DNA from: Sphingobacteriia bacterium
GTDB taxonomy: Bacteria; Bacteroidota; Bacteroidia; UBA7662
DNA: 64,000 nucleotides
Assembly: GCA_009927485.1 (NCBI GenBank)
Contig: RFMW01000091.1
Span: forward strand, 12,319 to 76,318
Direction of reading: 5' to 3'
Below, piece by piece: positions 31,897-48,806 of the stretch (its first letter is position 1; each line of letters starts with the position of its first letter). The notes under the pieces are model-generated. The model was not told the DNA's origin. It saw only the letters and a program-made list of their open reading frames with translations, and made no database searches. A program made the translations under genes and the position numbers.

Positions 31897-32997
31897 ATGC
31901 CGTCAAACCCCAGCGCCGCGAGTCTCGTCCATCTGCTGCATCGGTGGGGTCAATGGATGGGTTCGACCTCCAATCGCGATGATTGGTCGGAATGGTCCTC
32001 GTCGGTGTCCGTACAAAACCCCTGGTTCGAGCCCGAAATGCTGAAGCAAGCCCTGAAGGCATGGTCCATGGCCTTGGAGCTCCGTTCACTGGAACGGTGG
32101 CTTGCCCAAGACGAGGATGCACTCCTCCTCCAAAGGTCGCCTCGAAATGTTGGGCTCATCCTCCCCGGCAATTTTCCTTTCGCAGGTTTGCATGATGTCC
32201 TCTGCACCTTGATCGCAGGACATACGGCCCTTGTCAAACCCTCGTCCGATGATGCAGGACTCGTATCCTGGGCGATTCAAGGGCTGCTGGCCTTGCAACC
32301 TGAATGGAAAAATCGCTTCGCGATTGTGGAAAAACTCAACCGCGTGGATGCCATGATCGCTACGGGTTCAGCTTCTTCCCTACCTTATTTTGAGCAGTAT
32401 TTTGGACAAATTCCACACCTGTTTCGATCCCACCGAAATTCCATCGCCATCCTGGATGGCAAGGAAAAGACAGAAGATTGGATCGGTTTGGGGCAGGATA
32501 TTTTTCTCTATTACGGCAAAGGTTGCCGAAACGTATCCAAGGTATTGGTCCCGGAGGGCATGTCACCGCAACAACTGTTGGACGGATTGCAACAGTACCC
32601 TTGGGAGGGCCGCAACCATCGTTATCGAAACAATTTAGACTATCAGCTGGCCTTGCATATGCTGAATCGAAAGCCATTCACCCACAACGGATCGGTTATC
32701 TTGGTGGAAAGCTCAAAGATCTCGTCTCCCCTTGCCGTATTGCACTTTGAATATTACCAATCGGAACAAGAATTGGCCCGCCTGATCCTGGAGGCAATGC
32801 CCGTAACGCAATGCTGGTCAGGCAATCAACTCGTTGTTCAGTGGGGACAACGGGCTTCCTTCAAGAATCAATTTGATGAAGCGCAATGGAACAACTGGTG
32901 TTACCATGCGGTCGAGTTTGGTCAATGCCAATTCCCTGAAATTGACCGGTATGCGGATGCTGTGGATACCTTGGCTTTTCTACGAAGCGTACAGTAG
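31897..32997 (+). CDS. acyl-CoA reductase (LuxC family)
   Basis: LuxC-like architecture with GxGC catalytic-Cys region (YYGKGCRNVSKV). Conserved next to ferredoxin in Bacteroidetes. Start chosen downstream of the ferredoxin start. The ORF extends back to 31783. Confidence 0.55.
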   Translation: MPSNPSAASLVHLLHRWGQWMGSTSNRDDWSEWSSSVSVQNPWFEPEMLKQALKAWSMALELRSLERWLAQDEDALLLQRSPRNVGLILPGNFPFAGLHDVLCTLIAGHTALVKPSSDDAGLVSWAIQGLLALQPEWKNRFAIVEKLNRVDAMIATGSASSLPYFEQYFGQIPHLFRSHRNSIAILDGKEKTEDWIGLGQDIFLYYGKGCRNVSKVLVPEGMSPQQLLDGLQQYPWEGRNHRYRNNLDYQLALHMLNRKPFTHNGSVILVESSKISSPLAVLHFEYYQSEQELARLILEAMPVTQCWSGNQLVVQWGQRASFKNQFDEAQWNNWCYHAVEFGQCQFPEIDRYADAVDTLAFLRSVQ

Positions 32998-34141
32998 AAT
33001 TTTACGCAAAACGTGAAGGGTACGATCGATTTCTTCTTCGGTGTTGTGAGAACCCAGCGAAAATCGGACCGCCGTACGATCGTTCGGCATGCCAATTCCG
33101 TTGAGCACATGGGATCTCGACTCCGCACCTGAGCTGCAAGCACTTCCCCCCGATGCACAAATCCCTTCGATATCCAAATGAAAGAGCAACATTTCTCCTT
33201 TGGGATGGGGCGGAAACGACACGCTTAACACCTGGTACATGGTGGGTCCGTCGATATTGCCGTTGAAGGTTACCCCCGGGGATAGCCTCCAGGATTCCCT
33301 GCTTGAGCCTATTCTTCAATCTCGCAATGCGTTCACGCCGTTGATCCATGCTCGATACCGACAATTCCAAGGCCAAACTCATGCCTGCGATTCCCGGTAA
33401 ATTTTCGGTACCACCACGCATATTTCTTTCTTGAGATCCGCCTGCCAACATAGCGCCCAACGATAGCCCACCGCGGATATAGATAAACCCTACCCCTTTG
33501 GGTCCATAAAATTTATGAGCAGATCCGCTGGCCATATCCAAACCCATCTCCGTGAAATTCAATGGATAATGGCCAACGGTTTGGACCATATCGGAATGAA
33601 AAAGTGCGTTATGATCTTTACAAAGGGCAGCGACCTTCTCGATTTCCAGCATATTACCGATTTCGTTGTTACCGTGCATCAGGGTGACCAAAGTTGGAAT
33701 ATTCAAATCCCTTGACTCCTTCAACCATCGCTGGAGTTGGTTCAAATCCAAAATGCCTTGGGCGTCGTTGGGCAACCAACAAATTTCGGTGCCATGTACT
33801 TTATGTAGCTGTTCCAAGACATGGGTAATGGCATGATGCTCCAACGATGAAGATATGATACGACGAATGCCTAAATTTTCGACCGCACAACGGCAAGCCA
33901 TGTTATCCGACTCGGTTCCACCAGAGGTAAAGAAAATCTCCGAAGGCGAACAGCCTAACGCTTGGGCCATGCTTTTGCGAGCCTTTTCGATGATGATGCG
34001 TGATTCTCTTCCCAGGAAATGTATGGAGGAGGGATTTCCGTAACATCGAACCAAGAGCTCGGACATGGCCGAAGCCACCTCCGGGTGTATCGGGGTGGTG
34101 GCAGAATTATCCAAATAAATGCGGGGGAGGTCGTTGGTCAT
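32980..34141 (-). pseudogene. cysteine desulfurase (NifS/IscS family) with +1 frameshift at about 33275
   Basis: N-terminal 290 aa (IYLDNSATTPIHPEV..., PLP Lys SAHKFYGPKGVG) in one frame. The true C-terminus (GSACSSG active-site Cys, FSLGSHNTEEEID) is in another frame (ORF 32980..33240). They join at a C5/G4 homopolymer at 33273-33281. Confidence 0.8.
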
Positions 34142-35513
34142 GAACCTAGGATTTGACGGGCTTGGGAGGCGAGTTCAGCGGCAGCGTGCGCATGATTAGC
34201 CTCGGAATAAATACGCAATATGGGTTCGGTATTGGATTTTCGGACATGCAACCAACCCTCCTCCAAATCAAGTTTGAGTCCATCGGACCAATTCTTTACC
34301 GCATTCGGAAAGGCATCGGCCAAACGTTGCAAGAGCAATTCAGGGTCTGCTTGAGGATCAAAGGTTACCTTTTCTTTGGCCATGGCGTAGGCCGGGTAGG
34401 TGGACCTCCATTGGCTCATGGTCAGACCTTGTTCCACATAATGCGTGAGAAACAAGGCAATCCCCACCAAAGCGTCCCTTCCATAATGCAGATCGGGTAG
34501 GATAATGCCTCCATTCCCTTCCCCGCCAATCACAGCACCGGATGCTCGCATCGCCTTGACGACATGCACCTCGCCAACAGGAGAGGCATGGTAAGGCTGT
34601 TCGTACCGAGCGCAAACATCGCTTAAGGCCCTGGACGAGCTCAAATTCGAAACCGCAGGTCCAGGTTTTTGACTCATGACATAGTCCGCCACGGCAACTA
34701 GGGTATATTCCTCCCCAAACAATTCCCCGTTCTCCATAACGAAGGCGAGCCGATCCACATCGGGGTCCACCACGATGCCCATGTGGGCTTGACGGGATAC
34801 CACCTCCGTGCAAATTTCATCCAAATGCTCCCGAAGCGGCTCCGGGTTATGCGCAAAACGACCGTTGGGCTCGTCATTCAATACCTCAATTCGATGGACC
34901 CCTAATTGGGTCAAAGGGCGGGAACCGCCACGGCCCCCGACGAATTGATTCCATCCACCACCACGTGCAATCCTGCGGCGGCAATGGCTTGTCGATTCAC
35001 CAAGGGTAATGCCAAAATGTCTTGAATATGAGCCTCCAACGCGGAATCATCCTGATGGTATTGCCCCAAATTGTGCACGGTGGCGTAAGGTATGGGTTCC
35101 CCTTTTTGGACCTTTTGGAGTAGAGCGGCACCCTGTTCGGAACCAATGAAGCAACCATGATGATCCAATAATTTCAAGGCATTCCACTCCTCAGGGTTAT
35201 GGGAGGCCGTCAAAACAATACCACCCGCAGCCCCCACTCGAGGCACCTGCATCTCGAGGGTTGGTGTGGTGGTCAACCCTAAATCAATCACGTCCAAACC
35301 GCAAGCCATCAAAGTACCGCAGACCAAGCGGCTCACCATATCACCCGAAATGCGAGCGTCTCGACCAACCACCACGGTGCGACCATGCCCCTGTTCCAGC
35401 AACAAGGCCGCATAGGCATTGACGAAGGATACCACATCATGAGGCGTCAAATTCGAACCGGGTTGACCCCCTATGGTGCCGCGAATTCCCGAAACAGATG
35501 CTATTAAAGTCAT
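34138..35513 (-). pseudogene. glmM: phosphoglucosamine mutase GlmM, split by a -1 frameshift at about 34915
   Basis: N-terminal part (MTLIASVSGIRGTIGG, active-site TASHNPEEWN) ends at TGA 34911. The rest (LTQLGVHRIEVLNDEPNGRFAHNPEP...DPDVDRL) continues in another frame from TTG 34914. Orthologue alignment gives ...VPALLTQLGV..., implying one missing A/T in a short A-run. Confidence 0.8.
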
Positions 35514-36596: not shown

Positions 36597-38063
36597 ATGT
36601 CAAAATTTCGCCAATACGGAGCTACGGTGCTCATCGCATTTTTGGGAAGCCTGCTAGGGGCTTGGATCGTGTACGGTCTCCAAAAAAGACCTGCCTTGCA
36701 TCCAGCCAATTGGGGCTCTGCACCTGTCACTTTGACGGCCTTCCCGGAGCATATTGTGGAACACCCCAATTTTGTAACCACGGCGGCCATGGTGACTCCC
36801 TGTGTCGTGCATATCAAAACCAAGGGCAGTGCTCAAGGAGCTTTCAGAGGCGATATACCTCCGGGTATGGATATGTTTCGTGACTTTTTCAACGGACCGG
36901 ACATGATGCCGAGGGGACCTCAAATGGGCTCCGGTTCCGGTGTAATTCTCAGCGCAGATGGGTACATCGTCACCAACAACCATGTCATCAAAGAAGCGGA
37001 TGAAATCGAAGTCATCCTGAACGACAAACGGAGTTTCAACGGCAAGGTGATAGGTCAGGACCCAAGTTCCGACTTGGCCGTCGTCAAAATTGAAGCCAAC
37101 GATTTACCCTTTGTCAAAATAGGGAATTCCGATAAACTCCAGATCGGTGAATGGGTTTTGGCTGTTGGCAACCCATTTAATTTGAATTCCACAGTCACCG
37201 CAGGGATTGTTTCGGCCAAAGCCCGTAACATTAACATTTTGGGTGGAGGCACCAGCCTGGAGGCGTTCATCCAAACGGATGCCGCGGTCAATCCGGGAAA
37301 CAGCGGCGGTGCGTTGGTCAATGTCCAAGGGGAATTGGTCGGGATCAACACGGCCATCGCATCCAGCAACGGAGCTTACCAAGGGTATGCCTTTGCGATT
37401 CCTGCCAATTTGGTGACCAAAGTGGTGGAAGACCTCAAGGTCCACGGAACCGTGCAGCGTGGTTTCCTGGGCATCCAAATCAGGGATGTGGATGCAGCCT
37501 TGGTTGAAAGCGAAGGTCTCGAGGTCATCGCCGGAGCCTACGTGGCCGATTTCATGCCGAATTCGGCTGCCGAAGAAGCGGGTATCCTCAAAGGCGACGT
37601 GATCACCAAGGTCGAAGGGCAAAGCATCAAATCCACCCCTGAACTCATGGAAATCGTAGGCCGCAAAAGACCGGGGGAAAAAGTAGCTTTGGAAATCAAC
37701 CGCAAGGGGAAATCACAAATCTTTGAAGTCAAATTACGAAATGCAGACGGTAAAGCGGAATTGGTCAAAGCTGCTCCCAAAGAAGAGGAAAGCGATTGGC
37801 TGGGCGCCAAACTGGAGCGTGCCTCCCGCAAAGAACTCGAGAGCCTCAAACTGGAATCAGGAATCAAAATCAGCAAACTTGGAAGCGGTAAATTGAAAGA
37901 AAGCGGAATCCGAGAGGGTTTCATTATCACCAAGGTGGACAAAACTGAGGTCAACAGCCCCAAGGCCTTGCGAGAACTGGTACGCGGCAAAAAAGGCGGT
38001 CTGCTCATCGAAGGCCTGTACCCCAATGGTACCAAAGGCTTTTACGGGATCGAGATCCCGTAA
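36597..38063 (+). CDS. Do/DegP/HtrA-family serine endoprotease with two PDZ domains
   Basis: Catalytic triad context (TNNHVI...D...GNSGGALVN), trypsin-like domain, two C-terminal PDZ regions. Signal/TM at the N-terminus. Confidence 0.85.
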   Translation: MSKFRQYGATVLIAFLGSLLGAWIVYGLQKRPALHPANWGSAPVTLTAFPEHIVEHPNFVTTAAMVTPCVVHIKTKGSAQGAFRGDIPPGMDMFRDFFNGPDMMPRGPQMGSGSGVILSADGYIVTNNHVIKEADEIEVILNDKRSFNGKVIGQDPSSDLAVVKIEANDLPFVKIGNSDKLQIGEWVLAVGNPFNLNSTVTAGIVSAKARNINILGGGTSLEAFIQTDAAVNPGNSGGALVNVQGELVGINTAIASSNGAYQGYAFAIPANLVTKVVEDLKVHGTVQRGFLGIQIRDVDAALVESEGLEVIAGAYVADFMPNSAAEEAGILKGDVITKVEGQSIKSTPELMEIVGRKRPGEKVALEINRKGKSQIFEVKLRNADGKAELVKAAPKEEESDWLGAKLERASRKELESLKLESGIKISKLGSGKLKESGIREGFIITKVDKTEVNSPKALRELVRGKKGGLLIEGLYPNGTKGFYGIEIP

Positions 38064-38078: not shown

Positions 38079-38981
38079 TTACAGCGTCCGCAGGAAGGCC
38101 AGCAAAGCCTGTTTTTCCTCTGGATTAAGGTGGATTCGCCCTGCTTCACCCGCTCCATCGGTATAGTGTTGCAACACAGTTTCTAAGTTTGCTGCAGAGC
38201 CGTTGTGAAAGTAAGGAGCGGTCTTGGAAAGGTGCACCAGTGGCGGTGTTCGAAATCGCCCTCGGTCCTCTTCCAACAAACTAATGGCAGCCCTACCGGG
38301 ATCCGAGGAATCCACACCCAAATTATAGAAACGTCCATCGGTCCACGAGGGACCGTGATGACAACGAATGCAGGCCGCTTTGCCTCTGAACAAAGCCAAA
38401 CCTTGTTCAATATTCCGATGAGTGGGCTTGGGCGCGCTTTTTATCGAGTGTTCGGTGGTTGGATCCCCACTCTTCGAAAGGAGTCCTATCTTTTTTACAT
38501 AATCCCGGATAGCCAATAGATAGCCTGCCGCCAACGGTTGACCCGGATACAATCTATTTAAAATCAGTTTGTACCGGGTAAAATGCTGCAATTTCCTCTC
38601 CAGATCAACAGGGTTCATATCCTGGTCTCGATGCGCGGTCAACGCTGCCAAAATTCCTTGACTACCGTGACGTAACGGGGTTACTCCCCCATCCCACATC
38701 AACGGAATATCCCAGGGGAGACCAACCAAGGTAGGTGTATTGCGTAGAGTCTGCCTACCCCAAACCCCTCTTGAAAAGGCTACGTTGTCCGCAAAGGCAT
38801 GTTCGGCCTTGTGGCATGATGCACATGAAACTCGACCATCGCTGGAAAATCGGGGATCCTCAAAGAGGGCTTGCCCAATTGCTGAACTCGTAGTTCTTAG
38901 GGCAATGGAATCGCTGTTCTGATCTGCACAAGACGTCAAGATCAAAATCCACCAACAACATCCGCTGAAACAAGACCTCAA
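38079..38981 (-). CDS. di-haem cytochrome c peroxidase (MauG/MbnH-like), paralog 2
   Basis: Two CxxCH haem sites (CASCH, CIRCH). Signal peptide. 4-bp overlap with the upstream paralog. Confidence 0.8.
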   Translation of the reverse strand: MRSCFSGCCWWILILTSCADQNSDSIALRTTSSAIGQALFEDPRFSSDGRVSCASCHKAEHAFADNVAFSRGVWGRQTLRNTPTLVGLPWDIPLMWDGGVTPLRHGSQGILAALTAHRDQDMNPVDLERKLQHFTRYKLILNRLYPGQPLAAGYLLAIRDYVKKIGLLSKSGDPTTEHSIKSAPKPTHRNIEQGLALFRGKAACIRCHHGPSWTDGRFYNLGVDSSDPGRAAISLLEEDRGRFRTPPLVHLSKTAPYFHNGSAANLETVLQHYTDGAGEAGRIHLNPEEKQALLAFLRTL

Positions 38982-40051
38982 GGCTCGGCGTAGGCAGGGT
39001 TGGATGCCAAAGTGCTGTCGGTCAGGGTATGAAGAAAGGAAATAAGGTCCGCCTTGTCTTGAGCACTCAACCTCAGACCACCGGTTTGAACCCTGAGGTT
39101 GGCGTTCAAGGTGCTGCTCTGCACGACGCCATGGTCATAATGATCGATGACTTCTTCCAAGGTGGCCAAGCGACCATCGTGCATGTACGGTGCGGTGAGG
39201 CCTACGTTGCGAAGGGAAGGCACTTTGAATTTACCTCGATCGCCCGCCAGTCCGGTAACCACCTGGTAGCCAGTTTGGAGGACCGAATCCAATCCGTTGT
39301 TCTCAAACAAACGATTGGTAAACAGCGCACCCCCGTGGCAATGGAAACAATCTGCTCCCGTCGGACGACCGGAACCCGGGGCTGTGTATTCCCGCATAAA
39401 CAAATCAAAGCCGCGTTGCTCGGCAGGAGAAAAGGTGACCTGACCCATACGGACCTTATCAAATTTGGAACGCCAGGAAGTCATGGACAAAAGAAATTGC
39501 TCCAGGGCTTTTTGGAAACGCTCCACATTCACGGTTTCGTCGCCAAAGGCCCTACCAAACCGCTCTCGGTACGACGCATCACCTCGAAGCCTGGAGAGGG
39601 CCTCTTCCAAGGGCAAATGCATCTCCAAAGGATCCTGAACAGGCTGAACCACCTGGTCCCTGAGGTTGGGAGAACGCCCATCCCAGAAGAGGCGATTTGC
39701 CCATAACAAATTGAAAACAGGCATGGCATTGCGAGTTCCGAGCGTACCGTTGACACCGCGTGAATACACCAAGGTATCCGTGAAGGCATGATTGGGCAAA
39801 TGGCATGAGGCACAGGCCACAGTCCGATCCAAGCTCAACGCTTTGTCATAAAAAAGTTGACGGCCCAAGGCCACCCCCTCCACCGTAGCGGGATTATCCG
39901 AGGGCCATGGCAACGATGGAAAACCCAGACCGGGTGGCGGCATATCCACAGGGAAGGCTGTGGGCGCAGGGAAAACCTTGGGCTGATCGGACTCACAACC
40001 CATCAACAACAGGACTGGAAACAGCATCCAGGAAAATCGAGGGGAGACCAT
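38978..40051 (-). CDS. di-haem cytochrome c peroxidase (MauG/MbnH-like), paralog 1
   Basis: Two CxxCH haem sites (CASCH, CFHCH). Signal peptide. Immediately downstream of the putative MbnP-like lipoprotein. Confidence 0.8.
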   Translation of the reverse strand: MVSPRFSWMLFPVLLLMGCESDQPKVFPAPTAFPVDMPPPGLGFPSLPWPSDNPATVEGVALGRQLFYDKALSLDRTVACASCHLPNHAFTDTLVYSRGVNGTLGTRNAMPVFNLLWANRLFWDGRSPNLRDQVVQPVQDPLEMHLPLEEALSRLRGDASYRERFGRAFGDETVNVERFQKALEQFLLSMTSWRSKFDKVRMGQVTFSPAEQRGFDLFMREYTAPGSGRPTGADCFHCHGGALFTNRLFENNGLDSVLQTGYQVVTGLAGDRGKFKVPSLRNVGLTAPYMHDGRLATLEEVIDHYDHGVVQSSTLNANLRVQTGGLRLSAQDKADLISFLHTLTDSTLASNPAYAEP

Positions 40052-40063
40052 TTGCTCTACAGT

Positions 40064-40861
40064 TTAAGGATTGTTGATTATAATTCCTTTCCACGCAAAA
40101 GCCCCGGCAAGGTTGGAGGCTAATTTCTCGGCAACCCGGTCACCCAGGGAGGCATGAGAAAAGGAAGAAGAATCGGTGATCCAATGGGTATGACCGCCGT
40201 CAAAAAACTGACGCATACGCAATTCAACCATCATGGTTTCCGCTACTTTGTTCAAGGTGGTGGGGGGAAAGCGCAAGGTCACAGGGCGATAATAGGTATC
40301 CCCACCCAAGTGGTAGGAAAAGCCTCCGTTCAAGGGCGGATCCGTCCGTTGATACTGTCCTTCCAATTTGAAGAAGATATAACCTGTGTTCCAATTCCAA
40401 TGCATATGGGCGCTGTTAAGCAAAGAAAGTGGATTGGATACCGGCCATAACGCAGGGTCGCTGTGATTTCGCAGGGAATCAATCCCCACGGCCAGTCGAA
40501 AAGCGATAAATGTTCCGGAAGGGGCTGTATCCGAAATTTTCCAAGAATATTGTAATTGACGCTCCAAATCCGCATAGGCTACCGCATCGGGAAATTCCAG
40601 CCAGGAACTGTCCGAACGCTGCAAAGCAAAACCAGTTAAGTAATATTGACAATGGTTGATCTCGATTTGATTCAAGGTGGTTGGTAACCAACTTTGGTTA
40701 AGAACCAACGGAACAGCGGCGCCTGGAGGTGGTCCCATTTCGTAAACATGACCTAACTGCAAGAACAGACCGGTGGTGGCTGGCGGCTCAGGGCTGTTGG
40801 ACTGGCATCCTAACATCAAAAACAGGAAAATGCCAAGGCCTAAACTTTGGATTTTGTTCAT
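40064..40861 (-). CDS. W-rich lipoprotein, putative MbnP-family (copper-binding) partner of di-haem peroxidase
   Basis: Lipoprotein signal (MNKIQSLGLGIFLFLMLGCQS). About 265 aa, Trp-rich. First gene of an operon with two MauG/MbnH-like peroxidases. The family call is based on context and size, not on a recognised motif. Confidence 0.4.
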   Translation of the reverse strand: MNKIQSLGLGIFLFLMLGCQSNSPEPPATTGLFLQLGHVYEMGPPPGAAVPLVLNQSWLPTTLNQIEINHCQYYLTGFALQRSDSSWLEFPDAVAYADLERQLQYSWKISDTAPSGTFIAFRLAVGIDSLRNHSDPALWPVSNPLSLLNSAHMHWNWNTGYIFFKLEGQYQRTDPPLNGGFSYHLGGDTYYRPVTLRFPPTTLNKVAETMMVELRMRQFFDGGHTHWITDSSSFSHASLGDRVAEKLASNLAGAFAWKGIIINNP

Positions 40862-40904
40862 GGCGAGGCTATTCATGGCAAGCAAATTAAAAGTGGCCAT
40901 TCCA

Positions 40905-41363
40905 TTAAAGAACATCTTGAATTTGTGGGGTATGGAACAAATCCTCCTCCTCATTGGACCATAGCAATTGCAAAGCTTCCCCATCAAAGAGCATGAAACG
41001 CAAGGGTGCAGGTACCAAAACCAATTTGGCCCTCCTTGCAGGTTGTCCCGCTAATTCCCAATCCACCAGGATGCCTTCATCCATGGGCAACTCATAGGAT
41101 CCCTCTTCGATGACAGATTCGTTGTATCCTGAAGCCATGTAAGCAGTGGGTAACAATACTTCTTGGCCTGGAAAATGAGCTTCATGGATCTTCTGAAGTT
41201 TGGCTTCCAAATAGGACCCATGTTCTTGGTTAAAGGCATCCTCGGCATCGGTCATTGCGTCTTCTACTTCATCGTAGGTCGGGTCCGAATAATTCAATCC
41301 AACCAATTGATTTCGCAATGCGATTAGGGCCAAAAAGTCTTGGTCCAAGCTGTCTTTTTTCAT
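40905..41363 (-). CDS. hypothetical acidic cytoplasmic protein
   Basis: Intact ORF of about 150 aa with no signal peptide and no recognised motif. Confidence 0.4.
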   Translation of the reverse strand: MKKDSLDQDFLALIALRNQLVGLNYSDPTYDEVEDAMTDAEDAFNQEHGSYLEAKLQKIHEAHFPGQEVLLPTAYMASGYNESVIEEGSYELPMDEGILVDWELAGQPARRAKLVLVPAPLRFMLFDGEALQLLWSNEEEDLFHTPQIQDVL

Positions 41364-41466
41364 GGAAAAATGCTTAATTCCCTGCAAAAGTACTAAGATA
41401 TGGGCCTACCAAGCACTAAGTTGAGCCATGGCCCGGGCATCGGGTCCTGTAAATTATCTTTGGGGC

Positions 41467-43274: not shown

Positions 43275-44669
43275 ATGCTTATGAGGATTCTTGTTGTTGA
43301 CGACGAGGCCACCATCAGGGATAGCCTCAAGGATATCCTTGAGGGCGAGGGTTTTGACGTAGAATTGGCCGGCGACGGGATACAGGCTCTTCAAATCCTT
43401 GGAGACCGTGAATTCGACTTGGTCCTGTCCGATATCAAAATGCCTCGTATGGATGGCATTGAATTGCTTTCCCATTGTGCGAGGCATTACGCTCAAATGC
43501 CGATCATCATGATATCAGCCCATGGGAATGTGCAGACCGCTGTCGAAGCCACCAAACTTGGGGCCTTCGATTTCATCACCAAACCCTTGGATTTGGACAG
43601 GCTGCTGATTACCATTCGGAATGCCCTTCAAATTCGTGCACTTAAGCAAGAAGCCATCACGTGGACCCAGGATGATCTGGATCCTGTAGAACTTCAAGGA
43701 CAATCCCCTGCCCTCCTTAGTCTCAAAGAAACCTTGCAAAGGGTAGCCCCAACCGATGTTCGTATCTTAATAAGTGGGCAAGCCGGTACCGGCAAAGAAT
43801 GGATTGCCCGATTCATCCATCGCCTTAGCCCCCGAAATCACGGCCCCTTCGTTTCCTTGAACTGTGCTACGATCCCGGCGGATAATTTAGAACTAAAGCT
43901 ATTTGGCCATAGCGATTCTTCGGGAGATGCCCTCTTGCCCAAAGGCTATTATAACCAAGCCTTGGGAGGAACCTTGTTCCTGGATGAAATTGCGGATTTG
44001 CCTGGCCCTGCACAATTGACCTTGGTTCGCCTGTTGGAATCCTCCAAGAACCAAGGATCTTCAGGCCGTCACGGGGTTCGAATCCTGGCAGGTAGTCAAA
44101 AGGACCTCGTTCAGCTCATCGACGAAGGTAAATTCAGGTTGGATTTGTACCACCTCCTCAGCGTAATCCTCGTTCATTTGCCTTCTCTTCAACAGCGCCG
44201 CGAAGATATCCCCATGCTCGCGGGCATTTATCTCAACCGAATTTGCAAACAATACCAGCTTCCGTCCCTGCAATTTGAACCGGACGCCCTCCGCGCTTTG
44301 CAGGCCCTACCGTGGACAGGTAATTTGCGTGAACTCAAAAATGCCGTTGAGCGCCTTGCCATCCTTGCTGGCCCCAACATTACCCGAAAAGATATTCAAC
44401 AATTGATACAACCCATCGTGTTGGAAGGCAACCAAGTGGATTTGATCGATCACAATAAAGAAGCTGAACATCAGTCCATTATTTCTACCTTGGAGGAAGA
44501 GAATTTTCAACGATTCAAAGAACTCACCGAGAAGATTTTCGTGGAGCTTAAACTCAAAGAACATCAGTGGAACATCGCCAAAACCGCTGAAAGCATCGGC
44601 ATTCAACGCTCACACCTTTACAACAAAATTGAACGCTACCAACTTTCCAAACCCAAAGGCAAATTCTAA
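43275..44669 (+). CDS. sigma-54-interaction-domain response regulator (NtrC family) with degenerate GAFTGA
   Basis: Receiver domain (ILVVDDE...D54 context LVLSDIKMP). AAA+ Walker A GQAGTGKE. GNLRELKN arginine-finger region. C-terminal Fis-type HTH. Where GAFTGA is expected the sequence reads FGHSDSSGDALLPKG. Confidence 0.8.
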   Translation: MLMRILVVDDEATIRDSLKDILEGEGFDVELAGDGIQALQILGDREFDLVLSDIKMPRMDGIELLSHCARHYAQMPIIMISAHGNVQTAVEATKLGAFDFITKPLDLDRLLITIRNALQIRALKQEAITWTQDDLDPVELQGQSPALLSLKETLQRVAPTDVRILISGQAGTGKEWIARFIHRLSPRNHGPFVSLNCATIPADNLELKLFGHSDSSGDALLPKGYYNQALGGTLFLDEIADLPGPAQLTLVRLLESSKNQGSSGRHGVRILAGSQKDLVQLIDEGKFRLDLYHLLSVILVHLPSLQQRREDIPMLAGIYLNRICKQYQLPSLQFEPDALRALQALPWTGNLRELKNAVERLAILAGPNITRKDIQQLIQPIVLEGNQVDLIDHNKEAEHQSIISTLEEENFQRFKELTEKIFVELKLKEHQWNIAKTAESIGIQRSHLYNKIERYQLSKPKGKF

Positions 44670-44678
44670 GGTAATTTT

Positions 44679-46799
44679 CTAACGAATAACGCGAATAGTC
44701 CCCGAGTACGAAACGTCGTTACCATCATCATTTACCTTGAGTAAATAATAATAATTCCCAGCTTCAAGGCCCGGTGCATCCCAATCGTTTTGGTAATCAT
44801 CGGAATGGAAAACCGTTTGACCCCATCGATTAAACAAGGTAAACCGTGAACCCGGGTACAGGTACAGGTATTTGATCTTAACCTTGTCGTTGATATCATC
44901 ACCGTTGGGCGTAATAACATTGGGTACTACCACTTCCCGATACGGTACACCGAACTCCAAAACATTGGAATACGACCGGAAAACAGCGTCGGGTCGCTCC
45001 GTGTACAATCGGAGTTTGTACTGGCCTTTCTTGCGGGGTTTTCGATACGACAGCAGGGTATCCGTCCAATTGGCTGTATCAACCACCCAACCCAGTTCAG
45101 GTCGCTTAAGGTCCAATCGCTCGATTTGATATTTGGCCGTGTCCCATCCCAAATATCCGTTCCAACGCAAAGACATCACCGAATCATCGATCGATGTTTC
45201 AGGCTCATTCACGAGACGAATGGTCGATAACGTGCGAGACCGTATATTCCGAATACCGTTGATGAGGTTGAGGTCTACGTTGTAGCTTATGGGCTCGTCT
45301 TTGGGCAATACCGGGGCGTAAACATCCCGGTGTCGAAGAGAATCTACGGACGGTTCAATCCAAAAACGATTGGTCAAACGAATGGGATTTTCCCCCGGTC
45401 GGTAACGGTATAGGTTGTACCCGTTAAACCAAGCGCGATTCAATGTATCGTTGTTCGGGTCAATTCTCCAATTCAGGATGACTGCATTTTCGTTGACGGT
45501 GTCGAGCGTCACGTTCTCCATTAACAAGGGCGCTCGATAATCCGGGCAATTGCTCACGTTAATGATCAACGTATCAAACTCGTTCATAAACAAATCGCAA
45601 CGATTTCCGAAGGTGTTGTTATCGGTCCCTTTGCGACTAACCAAATAATAACGACCATTTTTTTCAAAACCTCTGGTCAATCGCACCCAAATATTACGGG
45701 TACGACCATCGCTGATGCAGGTATCGGGCCTGGCTTCCTGGATTTGGACCAGATCCCCGTCAGGGTCATATAGTCTAAATTCCGAGCCATTTCGAGCAAT
45801 GGAATTGCAAGCCACCAAGGAGTTGAGTTCAACTTTGAAGGCGGTATCGGTGGTGCACTGCACAGCCGTCGAGTCAAACTTGAAGGCAGGACGAATATTA
45901 TCGCAATAACGACCAATGCCCAAGATGACTTGAACATCGACCTTTACATAACCTACCAAGACGCCGTTGCGGTATTCGTCAACTTTCAGGACAAAAATTG
46001 AGGTTTGTTGCGTGTTGGAGAAAAAGCTGATATTACCGTTGCTGGGATTAATCGCGATTTGATTTCCGACTACATTGGCTGGAACCTGGGGGGTTCTGGG
46101 TGCCAAATAATTGGCATTCACATTCCACCCCGTCAAAGCAGAAGTTAAAGAGTAAACCACAGAGTCTCCTTGAGGTTCAGAAACATCAAAGACTACCGTT
46201 ACCGGCTCCTGTATGCAATACGCCGGGACCTGAAACGAGTTGAAGCGAGCAGAGGTATTGCCTGCAGGGATGTTGTTGTTGAGGTAAGAATCGATAAAAA
46301 AATTCTGTTGTCCAGGAGCGGGCCCGAGGGTATTGTTCGTATTTCGGCAGCACCAACCGGCATTGACGCTTGTTCCCCAAACAAAATACCAATCGTTGCA
46401 GGTAGGGGTTGTGGCCGAGAAAGGCAAGGTCACCGTCCCGGTCCACTTGTATTCCTGCAATCCATAACGCGTTCCACCGTTGCAAGTGCTGGGGTCTATG
46501 GTACAGGCCGTAACAACCTCAATCCCCGTACCAGGAACCCAGGTGACGGGCAACGTATAGGTTTGACCGCAACCGTTCCGGTAGTACATGTTCATGTTGG
46601 ACGTCGAGAACGGTCCCTGCATGATCGAATTGCAATCCCGGTAGATGGTCAAGGTAATTTGATATTCGTTGGGGTTGGCCAATTTGGTGTACGTAATGTT
46701 GCCACCGGCAATATGGGTCGCATGGGCGCTTCCGTGGATGAAGAGGAAGGAAGTGAGCAGAGTCAAAACCTTTGGGAGGTACGTCAGATAAGTTCTCAT
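44679..46799 (-). CDS. secreted protein with T9SS type-B (gliding-motility CHU_C) C-terminal domain
   Basis: Signal peptide. C-terminal NVITPNGDDINDK...FNRWGQTVFHSDDYQNDWDAPGLEAGNYYYLLKV...GTIRVIR matches the CTD-B pattern. Confidence 0.8.
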   Translation of the reverse strand: MRTYLTYLPKVLTLLTSFLFIHGSAHATHIAGGNITYTKLANPNEYQITLTIYRDCNSIMQGPFSTSNMNMYYRNGCGQTYTLPVTWVPGTGIEVVTACTIDPSTCNGGTRYGLQEYKWTGTVTLPFSATTPTCNDWYFVWGTSVNAGWCCRNTNNTLGPAPGQQNFFIDSYLNNNIPAGNTSARFNSFQVPAYCIQEPVTVVFDVSEPQGDSVVYSLTSALTGWNVNANYLAPRTPQVPANVVGNQIAINPSNGNISFFSNTQQTSIFVLKVDEYRNGVLVGYVKVDVQVILGIGRYCDNIRPAFKFDSTAVQCTTDTAFKVELNSLVACNSIARNGSEFRLYDPDGDLVQIQEARPDTCISDGRTRNIWVRLTRGFEKNGRYYLVSRKGTDNNTFGNRCDLFMNEFDTLIINVSNCPDYRAPLLMENVTLDTVNENAVILNWRIDPNNDTLNRAWFNGYNLYRYRPGENPIRLTNRFWIEPSVDSLRHRDVYAPVLPKDEPISYNVDLNLINGIRNIRSRTLSTIRLVNEPETSIDDSVMSLRWNGYLGWDTAKYQIERLDLKRPELGWVVDTANWTDTLLSYRKPRKKGQYKLRLYTERPDAVFRSYSNVLEFGVPYREVVVPNVITPNGDDINDKVKIKYLYLYPGSRFTLFNRWGQTVFHSDDYQNDWDAPGLEAGNYYYLLKVNDDGNDVSYSGTIRVIR

Positions 46800-48806
46800 T
46801 TATTTGATAATTTGAAGGGGGCCGTAAACCGGATCTTTGTCGATCACCCTCACGGTGTAATAGTAATTTCCTGCCGGCAGATTGGTAGGCGACCAATCGT
46901 TACGATAGTCCTCGCTGCTAAATACCAACTGGTTCCAACGATCAAAGATGGCGACTTTGGTTCCGGGGAAATAATCAATATCCTTGATCGTGAAATTATC
47001 ATTTGCCCCATCCCCGTTGGGCGTAATCACGTTGAAAACAATCACGGGGCGATCGATGATATCAAAGAAAATACGGTTTGAGTGTGCCACCAAAGAACTG
47101 TCGTCGTTCACCGCTTGAACCCAAAGCCGGTACCTCCCTAGTTTGGTTCCTTTCTGAATTCCGAAGGTAGTATCGGTGGTGGAGCCAACCCATAATCCCA
47201 CTGTATCATTGACTGCAGTGACAAAGACATTGTACTTCGAATTAGGCCAACCTTTGTAAGCCGGCCAACGAATTAGTCCTACTCCCCTGTTCCCGTTGTT
47301 AAGGGTCGTATCTCCTGCCTGCAGAAAAATATTATTGACCGAATCCCCAAAATCGGTTTGCCCGTAGTATTTCATTTCCAAAACGGCTAAAAAATCACGA
47401 GGCCCTTCGGTGGGGTCTTGAACGGTGGTGGTCAAGACGGTGTCTTGGAGGTTAGCCACCGAAGCAAACCGGTACCAGCGAGACGAGTTTAGGCTGTCGT
47501 TTTTGTAAAGAATGTAACGCTTAAAAAACGTGGTGTCAAAATTTTCTGGGGTCGACCAGGTGAGCACAATATCCCGGTTGTTGGGCTGAACGTCCACATT
47601 GCGCATGCGGATTGGGGTATTGTACTCGTAACAGGTGTTCAATCGAACAATTATCGTGTCAAATTCCTGAGTCCCGGAACCACAATCTCCCAACAGCGTG
47701 TTGTTATCCAAACCCCTTCGGATCACCAAATGGTGGTCGCCATTGACCAGAAAATCAATCGCGGACTCCACCGTGATCGAATCCACGCGGTTACCGTTGC
47801 ATGTAAAGGACACCTTCCGGATTTGCATCAACTGCCCCGCAGGATCGTACAGCCGGAAGTCTGTTCCGTTGGTATCAATGCTGCTGCATATGAGCGCACC
47901 GGATTTGGCCTTGAGGCCAATGAGCTTGGAATAGCATGGAGGATTGACCACCGGCCAGCGAGAAGTGGTATCGATGGATTTAAAACCACCAAAATAAATA
48001 CCTTGGCATTGCCCAATGGGCGAGAACAACCATCCTTCGCTCTGAGAAGAATTAGGGTAGGTTAAGCCTGGCGTCGTAGGAGAAACCACCCATTGGGTGG
48101 AATTGCGGGACCATGCTGGTAGCGGTGCGCCGATATTGGCACTGTTCACCACATAGGCTACCGTGCCTGTTGCATTATGGAGCCCCAGGACCGCGGTGCC
48201 GCCTGCCCACGTTGTGCAATTGGGTTTGTTGTCGATATGAATTTCAATGGTGTTGTTGCATTCGTTCAAAACTATTTGAAAGGTCCCTTGCAATGAGGTG
48301 CACTGGAACATGGGCAATTGAAGGTAGGAAACCACCAATTTGCGGTTGGGATAAGAACCTACCGTTTGGTACGAAATCGTGCCATTTCCATTCAGGTTGG
48401 ACCACCAATCTTGCCATGGACCCATGACACAATTCTTGGGCACGGTGGCACCGGTGCTCGGAATGGACGCTGAGGTGTACGTCGTCGGCTGACCGGGAGA
48501 GAAGCTAATCCAGCCGTTGGTCCCTACCCAAAACTGGGTGTAGTTGTTCCCGAAATAACAGAACGAGAATCCGATTTGGTAAGGACCAGCGACTCCATCA
48601 TCGGCGCTGCTGAATTCCCCGGTCAAAGCAGCACCCGCATAGGGCATGGGCGAAAAAGGAATTGTACTGATGGCATAGGTTTGAGCCGTGACGTTTCCAC
48701 CAGACAAGGTAAGCAGGGCCATGCACATCAAACCCCGAAATCCAGGGAAGAATGCAGGCACCTTGATGCGTTGAAAAATAGATTTCAAGGAATGACTTTT
48801 AGACAA
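46800..48806 (-). CDS. secreted protein with T9SS type-B (CHU_C) C-terminal domain, paralog
   Basis: C-terminal FNVITPNGDGANDNFTIKDIDYFPGTKVAIFDRWNQLVFSSEDYRNDW...AGNYYYTVRVIDKD. The start could be the internal ATG near 48728 (MALLTLSGG signal). Confidence 0.75.
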   Translation of the reverse strand: MSKSHSLKSIFQRIKVPAFFPGFRGLMCMALLTLSGGNVTAQTYAISTIPFSPMPYAGAALTGEFSSADDGVAGPYQIGFSFCYFGNNYTQFWVGTNGWISFSPGQPTTYTSASIPSTGATVPKNCVMGPWQDWWSNLNGNGTISYQTVGSYPNRKLVVSYLQLPMFQCTSLQGTFQIVLNECNNTIEIHIDNKPNCTTWAGGTAVLGLHNATGTVAYVVNSANIGAPLPAWSRNSTQWVVSPTTPGLTYPNSSQSEGWLFSPIGQCQGIYFGGFKSIDTTSRWPVVNPPCYSKLIGLKAKSGALICSSIDTNGTDFRLYDPAGQLMQIRKVSFTCNGNRVDSITVESAIDFLVNGDHHLVIRRGLDNNTLLGDCGSGTQEFDTIIVRLNTCYEYNTPIRMRNVDVQPNNRDIVLTWSTPENFDTTFFKRYILYKNDSLNSSRWYRFASVANLQDTVLTTTVQDPTEGPRDFLAVLEMKYYGQTDFGDSVNNIFLQAGDTTLNNGNRGVGLIRWPAYKGWPNSKYNVFVTAVNDTVGLWVGSTTDTTFGIQKGTKLGRYRLWVQAVNDDSSLVAHSNRIFFDIIDRPVIVFNVITPNGDGANDNFTIKDIDYFPGTKVAIFDRWNQLVFSSEDYRNDWSPTNLPAGNYYYTVRVIDKDPVYGPLQIIK

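Follow-up and report, generated by a model that had tools for sequence, protein, structure and literature searches.

The window analyzed here is a 64,000-nucleotide stretch of Sphingobacteriia bacterium DNA (phylum Bacteroidota; assembly GCA_009927485.1, contig RFMW01000091.1, positions 12,319 to 76,318). It contains three co-directional minus-strand genes, A, B, and C, which span 40861..38079 and encode an MbnP-family lipoprotein and two di-heme proteins. Genes A and B are spaced by 12 nt, while B and C overlap by 4 nt (TTGA), where the TTG of C lies across the TGA of B. A first-pass annotation made from the DNA letters had described a lipoprotein gene followed by two di-heme peroxidase genes, and the layout, boundaries, and junctions it gave were all recovered. 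In addition, a fourth gene, U, was found to belong with them. From comparison with related loci, the unit is a four-gene module, U-A-B-C, occupying 41363..38079 of the minus strand:

40905..41363, minus strand: gene U, 152 amino acids; upstream of A, first gene of the module
40064..40861, minus strand: gene A, 265 amino acids, ATG start; MbnP-family lipoprotein
38978..40051, minus strand: gene B, 357 amino acids, ATG start; MbnH-type di-heme lipoprotein
38079..38981, minus strand: gene C, 300 amino acids, TTG start; divergent di-heme lipoprotein

The N-termini of A, B, and C start with a few charged residues, continue with a hydrophobic segment, and end in a lipobox-like Cys (LMLGC, LLMGC, and LTSC, respectively). 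Because such a Cys follows the signal, the three proteins are predicted to be lipoproteins and more than simply secreted. The signals and the paired CxxCH motifs that had been proposed for both peroxidase-like proteins were thus found, with the signals being of the lipoprotein type. In the Pfam search, A matched the MbnP family (PF20243) over residues 51-221 with 94.6 bits, passing the gathering threshold of 27, while the CCP_MauG scores (cut-off 25.6) were 174 bits for B and 98 bits for C. The A-B-C order was shared by 19 related loci from metagenome contigs and species genomes, and the A proteins of loci with the matching order were 59-97% identical to that of the window. Given these Pfam scores and the synteny across 19 loci, A, B, and C are real genes and not chance open reading frames.

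Genes A and B as an MbnP/MbnH-type pair

The following features were located in gene A:

40805..40807, minus strand: lipobox Cys19, in the context LMLGC
40391..40405, minus strand: M153-H-W155-N-W157 motif, a WxW with a Met two residues ahead
40310..40312, minus strand: H184 (motif YHLG), candidate His ligand of the copper site
40154..40192, minus strand: H224-T-H226-WITD230-SSSFS-H236 cluster, specific to the A proteins of U-A-B-C loci

The proposal that this lipoprotein, which includes eight Trp residues (3.0%), belongs to the MbnP family was borne out by the Pfam match, the WxW motif, and matches to 7L6G, the MbnP of Methylosinus trichosporium. A search of the PDB with A as a single sequence returned nothing relevant. 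When a profile of A and 17 relatives was used, the sole match was 7L6G, in which M-H-W-N-W of A aligned with M-A-W-N-W. An AlphaFold (AF2) model of A, of moderate confidence, had a mean predicted local distance difference test score (pLDDT) of 71 and a predicted template modeling score (pTM) of 0.69. In a fold search with this model, only six chains of 7L6G matched (E 5e-6 to 4e-5, probability 1.0, template modeling score 0.42-0.48), and every other PDB match had an E value above 0.06. The NCBI annotation pipeline (PGAP) already labels such Bacteroidota proteins 'MbnP family protein'.

The residues of the putative copper site were also conserved. The M153/W155/W157 motif was invariant in 18 relatives of A. 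Met153, Trp155, Trp157, and His184 aligned with QAMAWNWQ and LHLG of the Methylocystis iwaonis MbnP, a reference encoded on a plasmid next to mbnB, mbnC, and mbnM. The direct alignment with 7L6G reached the Met and WxW region, and H184 was matched through the Methylocystis protein instead. Among 89 distinct MbnP-like proteins of Bacteroidota, nearly all kept this Met/Trp/Trp/His quartet; the H184 position was invariant among the relatives of A and was occupied by His in 87 of the 89 family members. Taken together, the Pfam match, the motif alignments, the modeled fold, and the conserved quartet identify A as an MbnP-family protein. A review of the primary work (PMC11951088) gives the ligands of the MbnP copper site as a kynurenine, a His, a Met, and a solvent ligand; the precursor of the kynurenine is the first of the two Trp residues in the conserved WxW, and its formation depends on MbnH. 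By analogy, W155 of A is the predicted kynurenine precursor.

Besides this quartet, the His cluster of A sets the proteins of U-A-B-C loci apart. The pair H226 and H236 was present in all 16 distinct A proteins of such loci, as compared with none of 73 other Bacteroidota MbnP-like proteins, an association that is confounded by shared ancestry and may reflect a single ancestral event. The cluster could bind a second metal or act as a docking surface.

In gene B, the following features were identified by alignment with a true MauG from a mau cluster, two MbnH sequences, and the Nitrosomonas di-heme peroxidase 1IQC:

39800..39814 and 39335..39349, minus strand: heme motifs (CxxCH), residues 80-84 and 235-239
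39683..39685, minus strand: inter-heme W123, the Trp of FWDGR
39617..39655, minus strand: Gln/Pro/Glu pocket, QVVQPVQDPLEM
39137..39139, minus strand: Y305, in the distal-ligand column

The best PDB match of B was MbnH (6E1C, 1.9e-50). Tyr305 shares its column with the Tyr of MauG and MbnH, where 1IQC has a Met. In a neighbor-joining tree, B joined the enzymes encoded downstream of MbnP-like genes in other Bacteroidota, and the clade of B itself had 100% bootstrap support. The protein has the full MbnH/MauG-type set of two CxxCH motifs, the Tyr, the inter-heme Trp, and the Gln/Pro/Glu pocket, and its gene has an mbnP-like neighbor; by these sequence features B is an MbnH-type enzyme. The distal-ligand check that the first-pass annotation had suggested gave Tyr rather than Met in both B and C, which places both with the MauG/MbnH type. 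The outcome named there as contrary, an imelysin-type lipoprotein with two canonical bacterial cytochrome c peroxidases, did not occur, which favors the family assignment.

The biochemistry of an MbnP/MbnH pair is treated in two published papers (PMC11951088, PMC11892367). The gene order of the Methylosinus trichosporium OB3b pair (7L6G and 6E1C) is the same as in A-B, with the partner protein followed by the di-heme enzyme. As in that pair, A has the MbnP fold with Met-x-Trp-x-Trp and a His, and B has two hemes, the Tyr ligand, the inter-heme Trp, and the peroxide pocket. Unlike that pair, A and B are lipoproteins of Bacteroidota, with an identity to their counterparts of 16-18% for A and roughly 35-40% for B; the module includes the extra genes C and U, and it lacks methanobactin genes, an MbnT-type transporter, and the four-Cys motif in the partner protein. 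Another likeness is to MopE/SACCP and CorA/CorB of methanotrophs, described in two papers (PMC3621798, PMC11951088) as copper-binding surface proteins with a kynurenine and an adjoining gene for a MauG-like di-heme protein. Their fold differs from that of A, and no sequence relationship to A was found in any search.

Gene C, a remodeled second di-heme protein

The following features were located in gene C:

38811..38825 and 38358..38372, minus strand: heme motifs (CxxCH), residues 53-57 and 204-208
38694..38696, minus strand: W96, at the inter-heme position by alignment
38616..38672, minus strand: remodeled pocket, RHGSQGILAALTAHRDQDM, which replaces the Gln/Pro/Glu segment
38163..38165, minus strand: Y273, in the distal-ligand column

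The two di-heme proteins had been called tandem paralogs. A recent tandem duplication of B into C was ruled out, as the two share an identity of 28% and were joined in 0 of 100 bootstrap trees. In the alignment, C retained the calcium-site-like RN(T)P and T-A-P-Y residues, while the Gln/Pro/Glu of the pocket was gone from C and its orthologues and GSxx(I/V)LAAxTAHxD, with a three-residue insertion, stood in its place. The protein also lacks the C-terminal extension present in B and in C', the third gene of a more distant clade.

Conservation was counted over 28 distinct orthologues of C. Both CxxCH motifs, Asp119, His272, and the C-terminal GAGEAG were invariant, and His117 and Tyr273 were each present in 27 of the 28. 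The Trp96 position was split evenly, with Trp in 14 orthologues and Ala in 14. The ratio of nonsynonymous to synonymous substitution rates (dN/dS) was 0.15-0.28 for C vs 0.07-0.12 for B; C evolves about twice as fast as B yet is clearly under purifying selection. The invariant heme motifs, the new invariant motifs (LAAxTAHxD and GAGEAG), and the dN/dS indicate that C is a functional yet non-canonical protein.

Close orthologues of C were few: about 27 clusters were found at an identity of at least 48%, followed by a drop to 41% or less, and the relatives below 48% were generic MauG-like proteins. The nearest of the outside relatives (P0047 and P0126) were considered as a functional clue and rejected as uninformative, since they lie in unrelated contexts, with beta-lactamase-like and Tricorn-like neighbors. 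In the more distant clade, where the A proteins are 34-41% identical to that of the window and the gene order is identical, C' has 342-350 amino acids. It scores as an MbnH (218.8 bits) and retains the Pro and Glu of the pocket, while its inter-heme position holds a Lys or Arg and no Trp. Monophyly of C and C' was recovered in 26 of 100 bootstrap trees, and position alone backs a common origin. On the simplest reading of these sequences, an ancestral second MbnH-like gene would have lost the inter-heme Trp first, and the clade of the window would later have lost the pocket and the C-terminal extension.

MauG, the enzyme of tryptophan tryptophylquinone biosynthesis, is a di-heme protein with a His/Tyr heme that oxidizes Trp residues of its partner, and B and C share the Tyr at its ligand column. 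Their scores on the MauG model (TIGR03791) were 170 and 118 bits as compared with a cut-off of 443.85, and C lacks the pocket residues and a conserved inter-heme Trp. No mau genes were found near the operon, and methylamine dehydrogenase genes were likewise not found there.

The first-pass annotation had offered, as one explanation of the two peroxidase-like genes, that one of them encodes a conventional periplasmic peroxidase. Applied to C, this means a cytochrome c peroxidase that removes H2O2 and is a mere neighbor of the MbnP/MbnH pair. The canonical di-heme peroxidases (1IQC of Nitrosomonas europaea and 1EB7 of Pseudomonas aeruginosa) share the overall fold and two CxxCH motifs with C and are among its best or near-best PDB matches, 1IQC being the best single match (3.3e-23), and both heme motifs of C are intact. 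In contrast, the electron-transfer heme of these enzymes is His/Met, where B and C have a Tyr at that column, and C also lacks the Gln/Pro/Glu pocket and a conserved inter-heme Trp. In addition, no sampled locus had C without A-B, the C gene shares 4 nt with B, and the closest relatives of C outside the clade were MauG-like proteins in unrelated contexts. It is therefore very improbable that C is a conventional peroxidase.

The rapid evolution of C, together with the loss of the pocket residues and the C-terminal extension, would also suit a catalytically dead pseudo-enzyme that acts as a structural partner, either in a heterodimer with B or as a docking scaffold for A. Canonical di-heme peroxidases are dimers, which counts toward this possibility. 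The invariant or near-invariant CxxCH motifs, Tyr, and calcium-site-like residues, and the new motifs that are invariant in 28 orthologues, exceed what a scaffold would need, and there appears to be only a slim chance that C is catalytically dead.

Gene U and the Bacteroidota-wide context

Gene U encodes an acidic protein with no match in Pfam or NCBIfam. A profile search returned about 140 representatives at 50% clustering. Among the loci that were fetched, a hidden Markov model of the U family matched only the 19 with A-B-C, while about 66 other MbnP loci gave no match. The protein is at least as conserved as A, and U-A-B-C' were still kept together in the distant clade, where the flanks differ. 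In an AF2 model of U (pLDDT 83), a helical hairpin precedes a small beta unit, and no significant match to the model was found in the PDB. The strict co-occurrence of C and U with A-B in the 19 loci, their retention despite changed flanks, and the tight or overlapping junctions argue that both belong to the unit. The module was carried by about 14 related species and, as far as sampled, was confined to two clades of uncultured freshwater Bacteroidota.

Features related to the boundaries and the possible regulation of the module were as follows:

41385..41392, minus strand: TACTTTTG, candidate Bacteroidota -7 box (TAnnTTTG), with the U start codon 21 nt downstream; identified by consensus only
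43275..44669, plus strand: NtrC-type response regulator gene, with Pfam receiver, sigma-54 activator, and helix-turn-helix domains
38042..38063, no strand given: hairpin TTACGGGATCGAGATCCCGTAA with a 9-bp stem, flanked by the C stop codon and the end of a convergent gene for an HtrA-like protease

The sequence TAnnTTTG is the -7 element of Bacteroidetes promoters, and it occurs once on the minus strand within 40800..41450. A similar box was found 23-37 nt upstream of U in four of seven relatives, and none was found between U and A. This arrangement weakly suggests that the four genes are read as one transcript. A scan for sigma-70-type promoters, whose consensus is inapplicable to Bacteroidota, gave counts no higher than in shuffled sequence. 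A sigma-54 promoter was considered and rejected, as 309 matches to TGGCAC-N5-TTGCW with up to three mismatches vs 302 expected amount to chance. The NtrC-type gene was linked to the module in all relatives, at a distance of at most two genes from U-A-B-C both in the close clade and in three loci (L020-L022) whose other flanks differ. No histidine kinase gene adjoins it, and it is possible that its product regulates the module. At the other end, the hairpin is a likely terminator, as argued from its position alone; terminator-like sites in the scan were no more numerous than in shuffled sequence.

The wider distribution of the pair was surveyed with one genome per species, where the best 80 relatives of A were taken for an analysis of loci. 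At least 550 relatives of A were found among the species genomes, and the best 80 were all from Bacteroidota. The usual arrangement in these 80 species was one MbnP-like gene followed directly by one MbnH-like gene. Alternatives included duplicated pairs (A-B...A-B or A-A-B-B) and lone MbnP-like genes. Where two di-heme genes were found elsewhere, they accompanied duplicated MbnP genes, unlike the single MbnP gene and degenerate second enzyme of the window.

The common form of the locus had recurrent partners: a small membrane protein of about 125 amino acids was encoded upstream in 33 loci, and a protein of about 305 amino acids with a signal peptide and then a CD(V/I)CGC motif was encoded downstream in 30 loci. 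Neither is covered by a Pfam or NCBIfam model, and neither was found anywhere in the window. This common architecture, represented by Lacihabitans, Larkinella, Chitinophagaceae, and a plasmid of Chondrinema litorale, shares the A-B core with the window, is annotated by PGAP as 'MbnP family protein' plus 'cytochrome c peroxidase', and usually lacks a TonB-dependent transporter. Where it has the two recurrent partners, the window has U and C, and by sequence comparison the unusual feature of the locus is this replacement. Pfam tallies of the genes neighboring other Bacteroidota pairs revealed no dominant partner family, while SCO1/SenC and thioredoxin-like genes were found near the pair in a few loci.

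A missing TonB-dependent transporter had been regarded as unusual in the first-pass annotation. No such gene adjoins the operon or was found among the six largest open reading frames of the window that were scanned. Across Bacteroidota, TonB-dependent receptor domains were found in only three of 101 upstream neighbors and in none of the 25 commonest families among 96 downstream neighbors. Since the pair is rarely accompanied by such a transporter in this phylum, its absence here is the norm.

The survey also yielded several observations on the partners and on atypical loci. The partner of about 125 amino acids (e.g., L033:6439-6837) has a C..GKC motif and an FHPP-like C-terminus, and equivalents of this protein and of the partner of about 305 amino acids (e.g., L033:8809-9735) were found in about 30 loci, such as L046, L061, L065, L081, and L083. 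The larger of the two may be an outer-membrane soft-metal-binding partner that replaces the TonB-dependent transporter. MbnP-like genes with the full Met/Trp/Trp/His and no di-heme gene within 7 kb were found in L007:8001-8780, L024, L025, L029, L045, L048, L051, L058, and L059, for example in Raineya and in metagenome-assembled genomes (MAGs) of Cytophagales, adjoining OmpA and MarR genes, so that one may ask whether their Trp is modified at all and, if so, by what. In A-A-B-B clusters (L043:2471-3304 of a Larkinella sp., L053, L084, and L085), one MbnP paralogue lacks the Met and His, with VSWMW and LLETG in place of the usual MxWxW and YHxG, and looks like a degenerate copy that probably does not bind copper. 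The Chondrinema litorale plasmid (L092, 5995-10330) has a mirror-image cluster in the order peroxidase, MbnP, hypothetical, MbnP, peroxidase, which indicates that MbnP/MbnH pairs can be duplicated and plasmid-borne in Bacteroidota.

Proposed roles of the module and their significance

Gene structure, family membership, residue conservation, synteny, and purifying selection were observed directly, and they form the basis of a proposed mechanism. Protein A would be exported and lipid-anchored. Protein B, with its His/Tyr heme, inter-heme Trp, and intact peroxide-activating pocket, would then oxidize Trp155 of A to kynurenine. The kynurenine at position 155, together with Met153 and His184, would form a Cu(I) site as in the Methylosinus trichosporium pair. 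Protein C would descend, in strongly altered form, from a second MbnH-like gene; it would still bind two hemes, with the Tyr ligand kept, and would most likely serve the pathway in an accessory redox role, exchanging electrons with B or with the metal center of A. The MauG charge-resonance mechanism, which involves a bis-Fe(IV) state, depends on the inter-heme Trp. Since C has lost the Gln/Pro/Glu pocket and its inter-heme Trp is dispensable, it is unlikely to be a peroxide scavenger or an oxidant of this kind. Kynurenine formation and copper binding are carried over to this locus by homology from the characterized proteobacterial pair, and the roles given for C and U are likewise inferred. 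Overall, we consider it moderately probable that U-A-B-C is a module in which B matures A and C has an accessory electron-transfer role.

Several results weigh against this proposal. No copper-handling gene was found near the module in the window. Both members of the pair missed the NCBIfam equivalog cut-offs, with A at 35.8 bits on TIGR04052 (cut-off 140) and B at 237.8 bits on its best family, MbnH TIGR04039 (cut-off 362.85). Other Bacteroidota MbnP-like proteins, at 49-54 bits, are also under the cut-off of TIGR04052, and A is therefore taken to be a member of a separate subfamily. The only Cys residues of A are Cys19 of the lipobox and Cys71, so that the four-Cys motif, from which the proteobacterial MbnP family took its earlier name, is absent. 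The copper-site loop (residues 143-161) was modeled with low confidence. In addition, U has no signal peptide, in contrast to the three exported proteins to which it is linked. The C protein of the window itself has a Trp at the inter-heme position, and its His117/Asp119 pair could itself be catalytic, so that the loss of the pocket is no proof of lost catalysis.

Some of these results would also fit a module that is not a copper system, where the modified Trp of A serves another metal or is itself a redox cofactor and the MbnP homology is misleading as to function. The missed cut-offs, the identity of 16-18% between A and 7L6G, the lack of a copper gene near the module in the window, and the heterogeneous neighbors of Bacteroidota pairs all point in this direction. 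The Met, Trp, and His assigned to the copper site are conserved family-wide, while the CD(V/I)CGC partner and the occasional SCO1/SenC and thioredoxin-like genes fit a role with a soft metal such as Cu(I). In view of these, a function unrelated to copper appears improbable.

The main rival to the proposed electron-transfer role is that C is a second partner-modifying MauG-like enzyme. Under this explanation, B makes the kynurenine and C oxidizes A elsewhere, for example at Trp157 or in the region of His224/His226/His236, leading to a second or more elaborate metal site. The first-pass annotation had raised a variant system with two partner-modifying enzymes as its other explanation of the two peroxidase-like genes; the MauG/MbnH type of both proteins was upheld, the conventional peroxidase was not, and the variant with C as a second partner-directed enzyme stays as a rival. 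It is consistent with the retention in C of both hemes and the MauG-type Tyr, with the conserved new His117/Asp119 pair near the first heme, with the inter-heme Trp of the window's own C, and with the occurrence of the His cluster of A only where C and U occur (16/16 vs 0/73). However, the inter-heme Trp is replaced by Ala in 14 of 28 C orthologues and by Lys or Arg in C', the Gln/Pro/Glu pocket is lost, and the His-cluster association perhaps reflects a single event of ancestry. A second modifying enzyme is thus unlikely, although its chance is appreciable.

The same His cluster gives rise to a further possibility, to which we assign a small chance: a three-component envelope redox machine, where B matures A by making the kynurenine, A is the metal center, His224/His226/His236 form a second metal site, and C, having lost its peroxidase chemistry, is the dedicated electron-transfer partner of A. 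This can be likened to methylamine dehydrogenase, for which MauG carries out the maturation and which afterwards operates with redox partners of its own. If true, the module would be a new kynurenine-copper/heme oxidoreductase, going beyond a copper-handling pair.

Elsewhere in the window, two tandem genes for large proteins of 706 and 668 amino acids with C-terminal CHU_C type IX secretion domains are located at 44679..48806 on the minus strand, and they are syntenic with the module in relatives; they point to Bacteroidota as the origin of the window. In the region 32980..35513, a comparison with the 90%-identical genome L010 revealed that the window has a 1-nt deletion near 34915 as well as an insertion of 1 nt near 33280. 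The deletion splits a glmM-like phosphoglucosamine mutase gene into open reading frames 34138..34914 and 34911..35513, while the insertion frameshifts a cysteine desulfurase-like gene (33002..34141), whose true C-terminus lies within 32980..33240. The two frameshifts are either assembly errors or two neighboring pseudogenes. The closest genome records, L010, L012, and L021, are labeled 'Sphingomonadales bacterium', while their type IX secretion domains, Bacteroidota-type MbnP, and all other relatives indicate Bacteroidota; these MAGs are probably mislabeled. An identical copy of the U protein is on record from a MAG labeled 'Sphingobacteriia bacterium'.

To our knowledge, no system other than MbnP/MbnH has so far been shown to use a MauG-like enzyme to install a kynurenine and thereby create a copper site. 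The practical importance of the present locus is modest, as it concerns uncultured freshwater bacteria and results at the level of sequence. Annotation models built on proteobacterial members miss the very frequent occurrence of MbnP/MbnH-like pairs in Bacteroidota, with at least 550 relatives among species genomes, where they have their own partners and not TonB-dependent transporters. In the module described here, a known type of pair, A-B, appears from its sequences to be extended by two lineage-specific extras, the remodeled C and the small U. Since C keeps its hemes and Tyr while it has shed the pocket and, in half of its orthologues, the inter-heme Trp, the locus provides a natural test of which MauG-type features serve which function.

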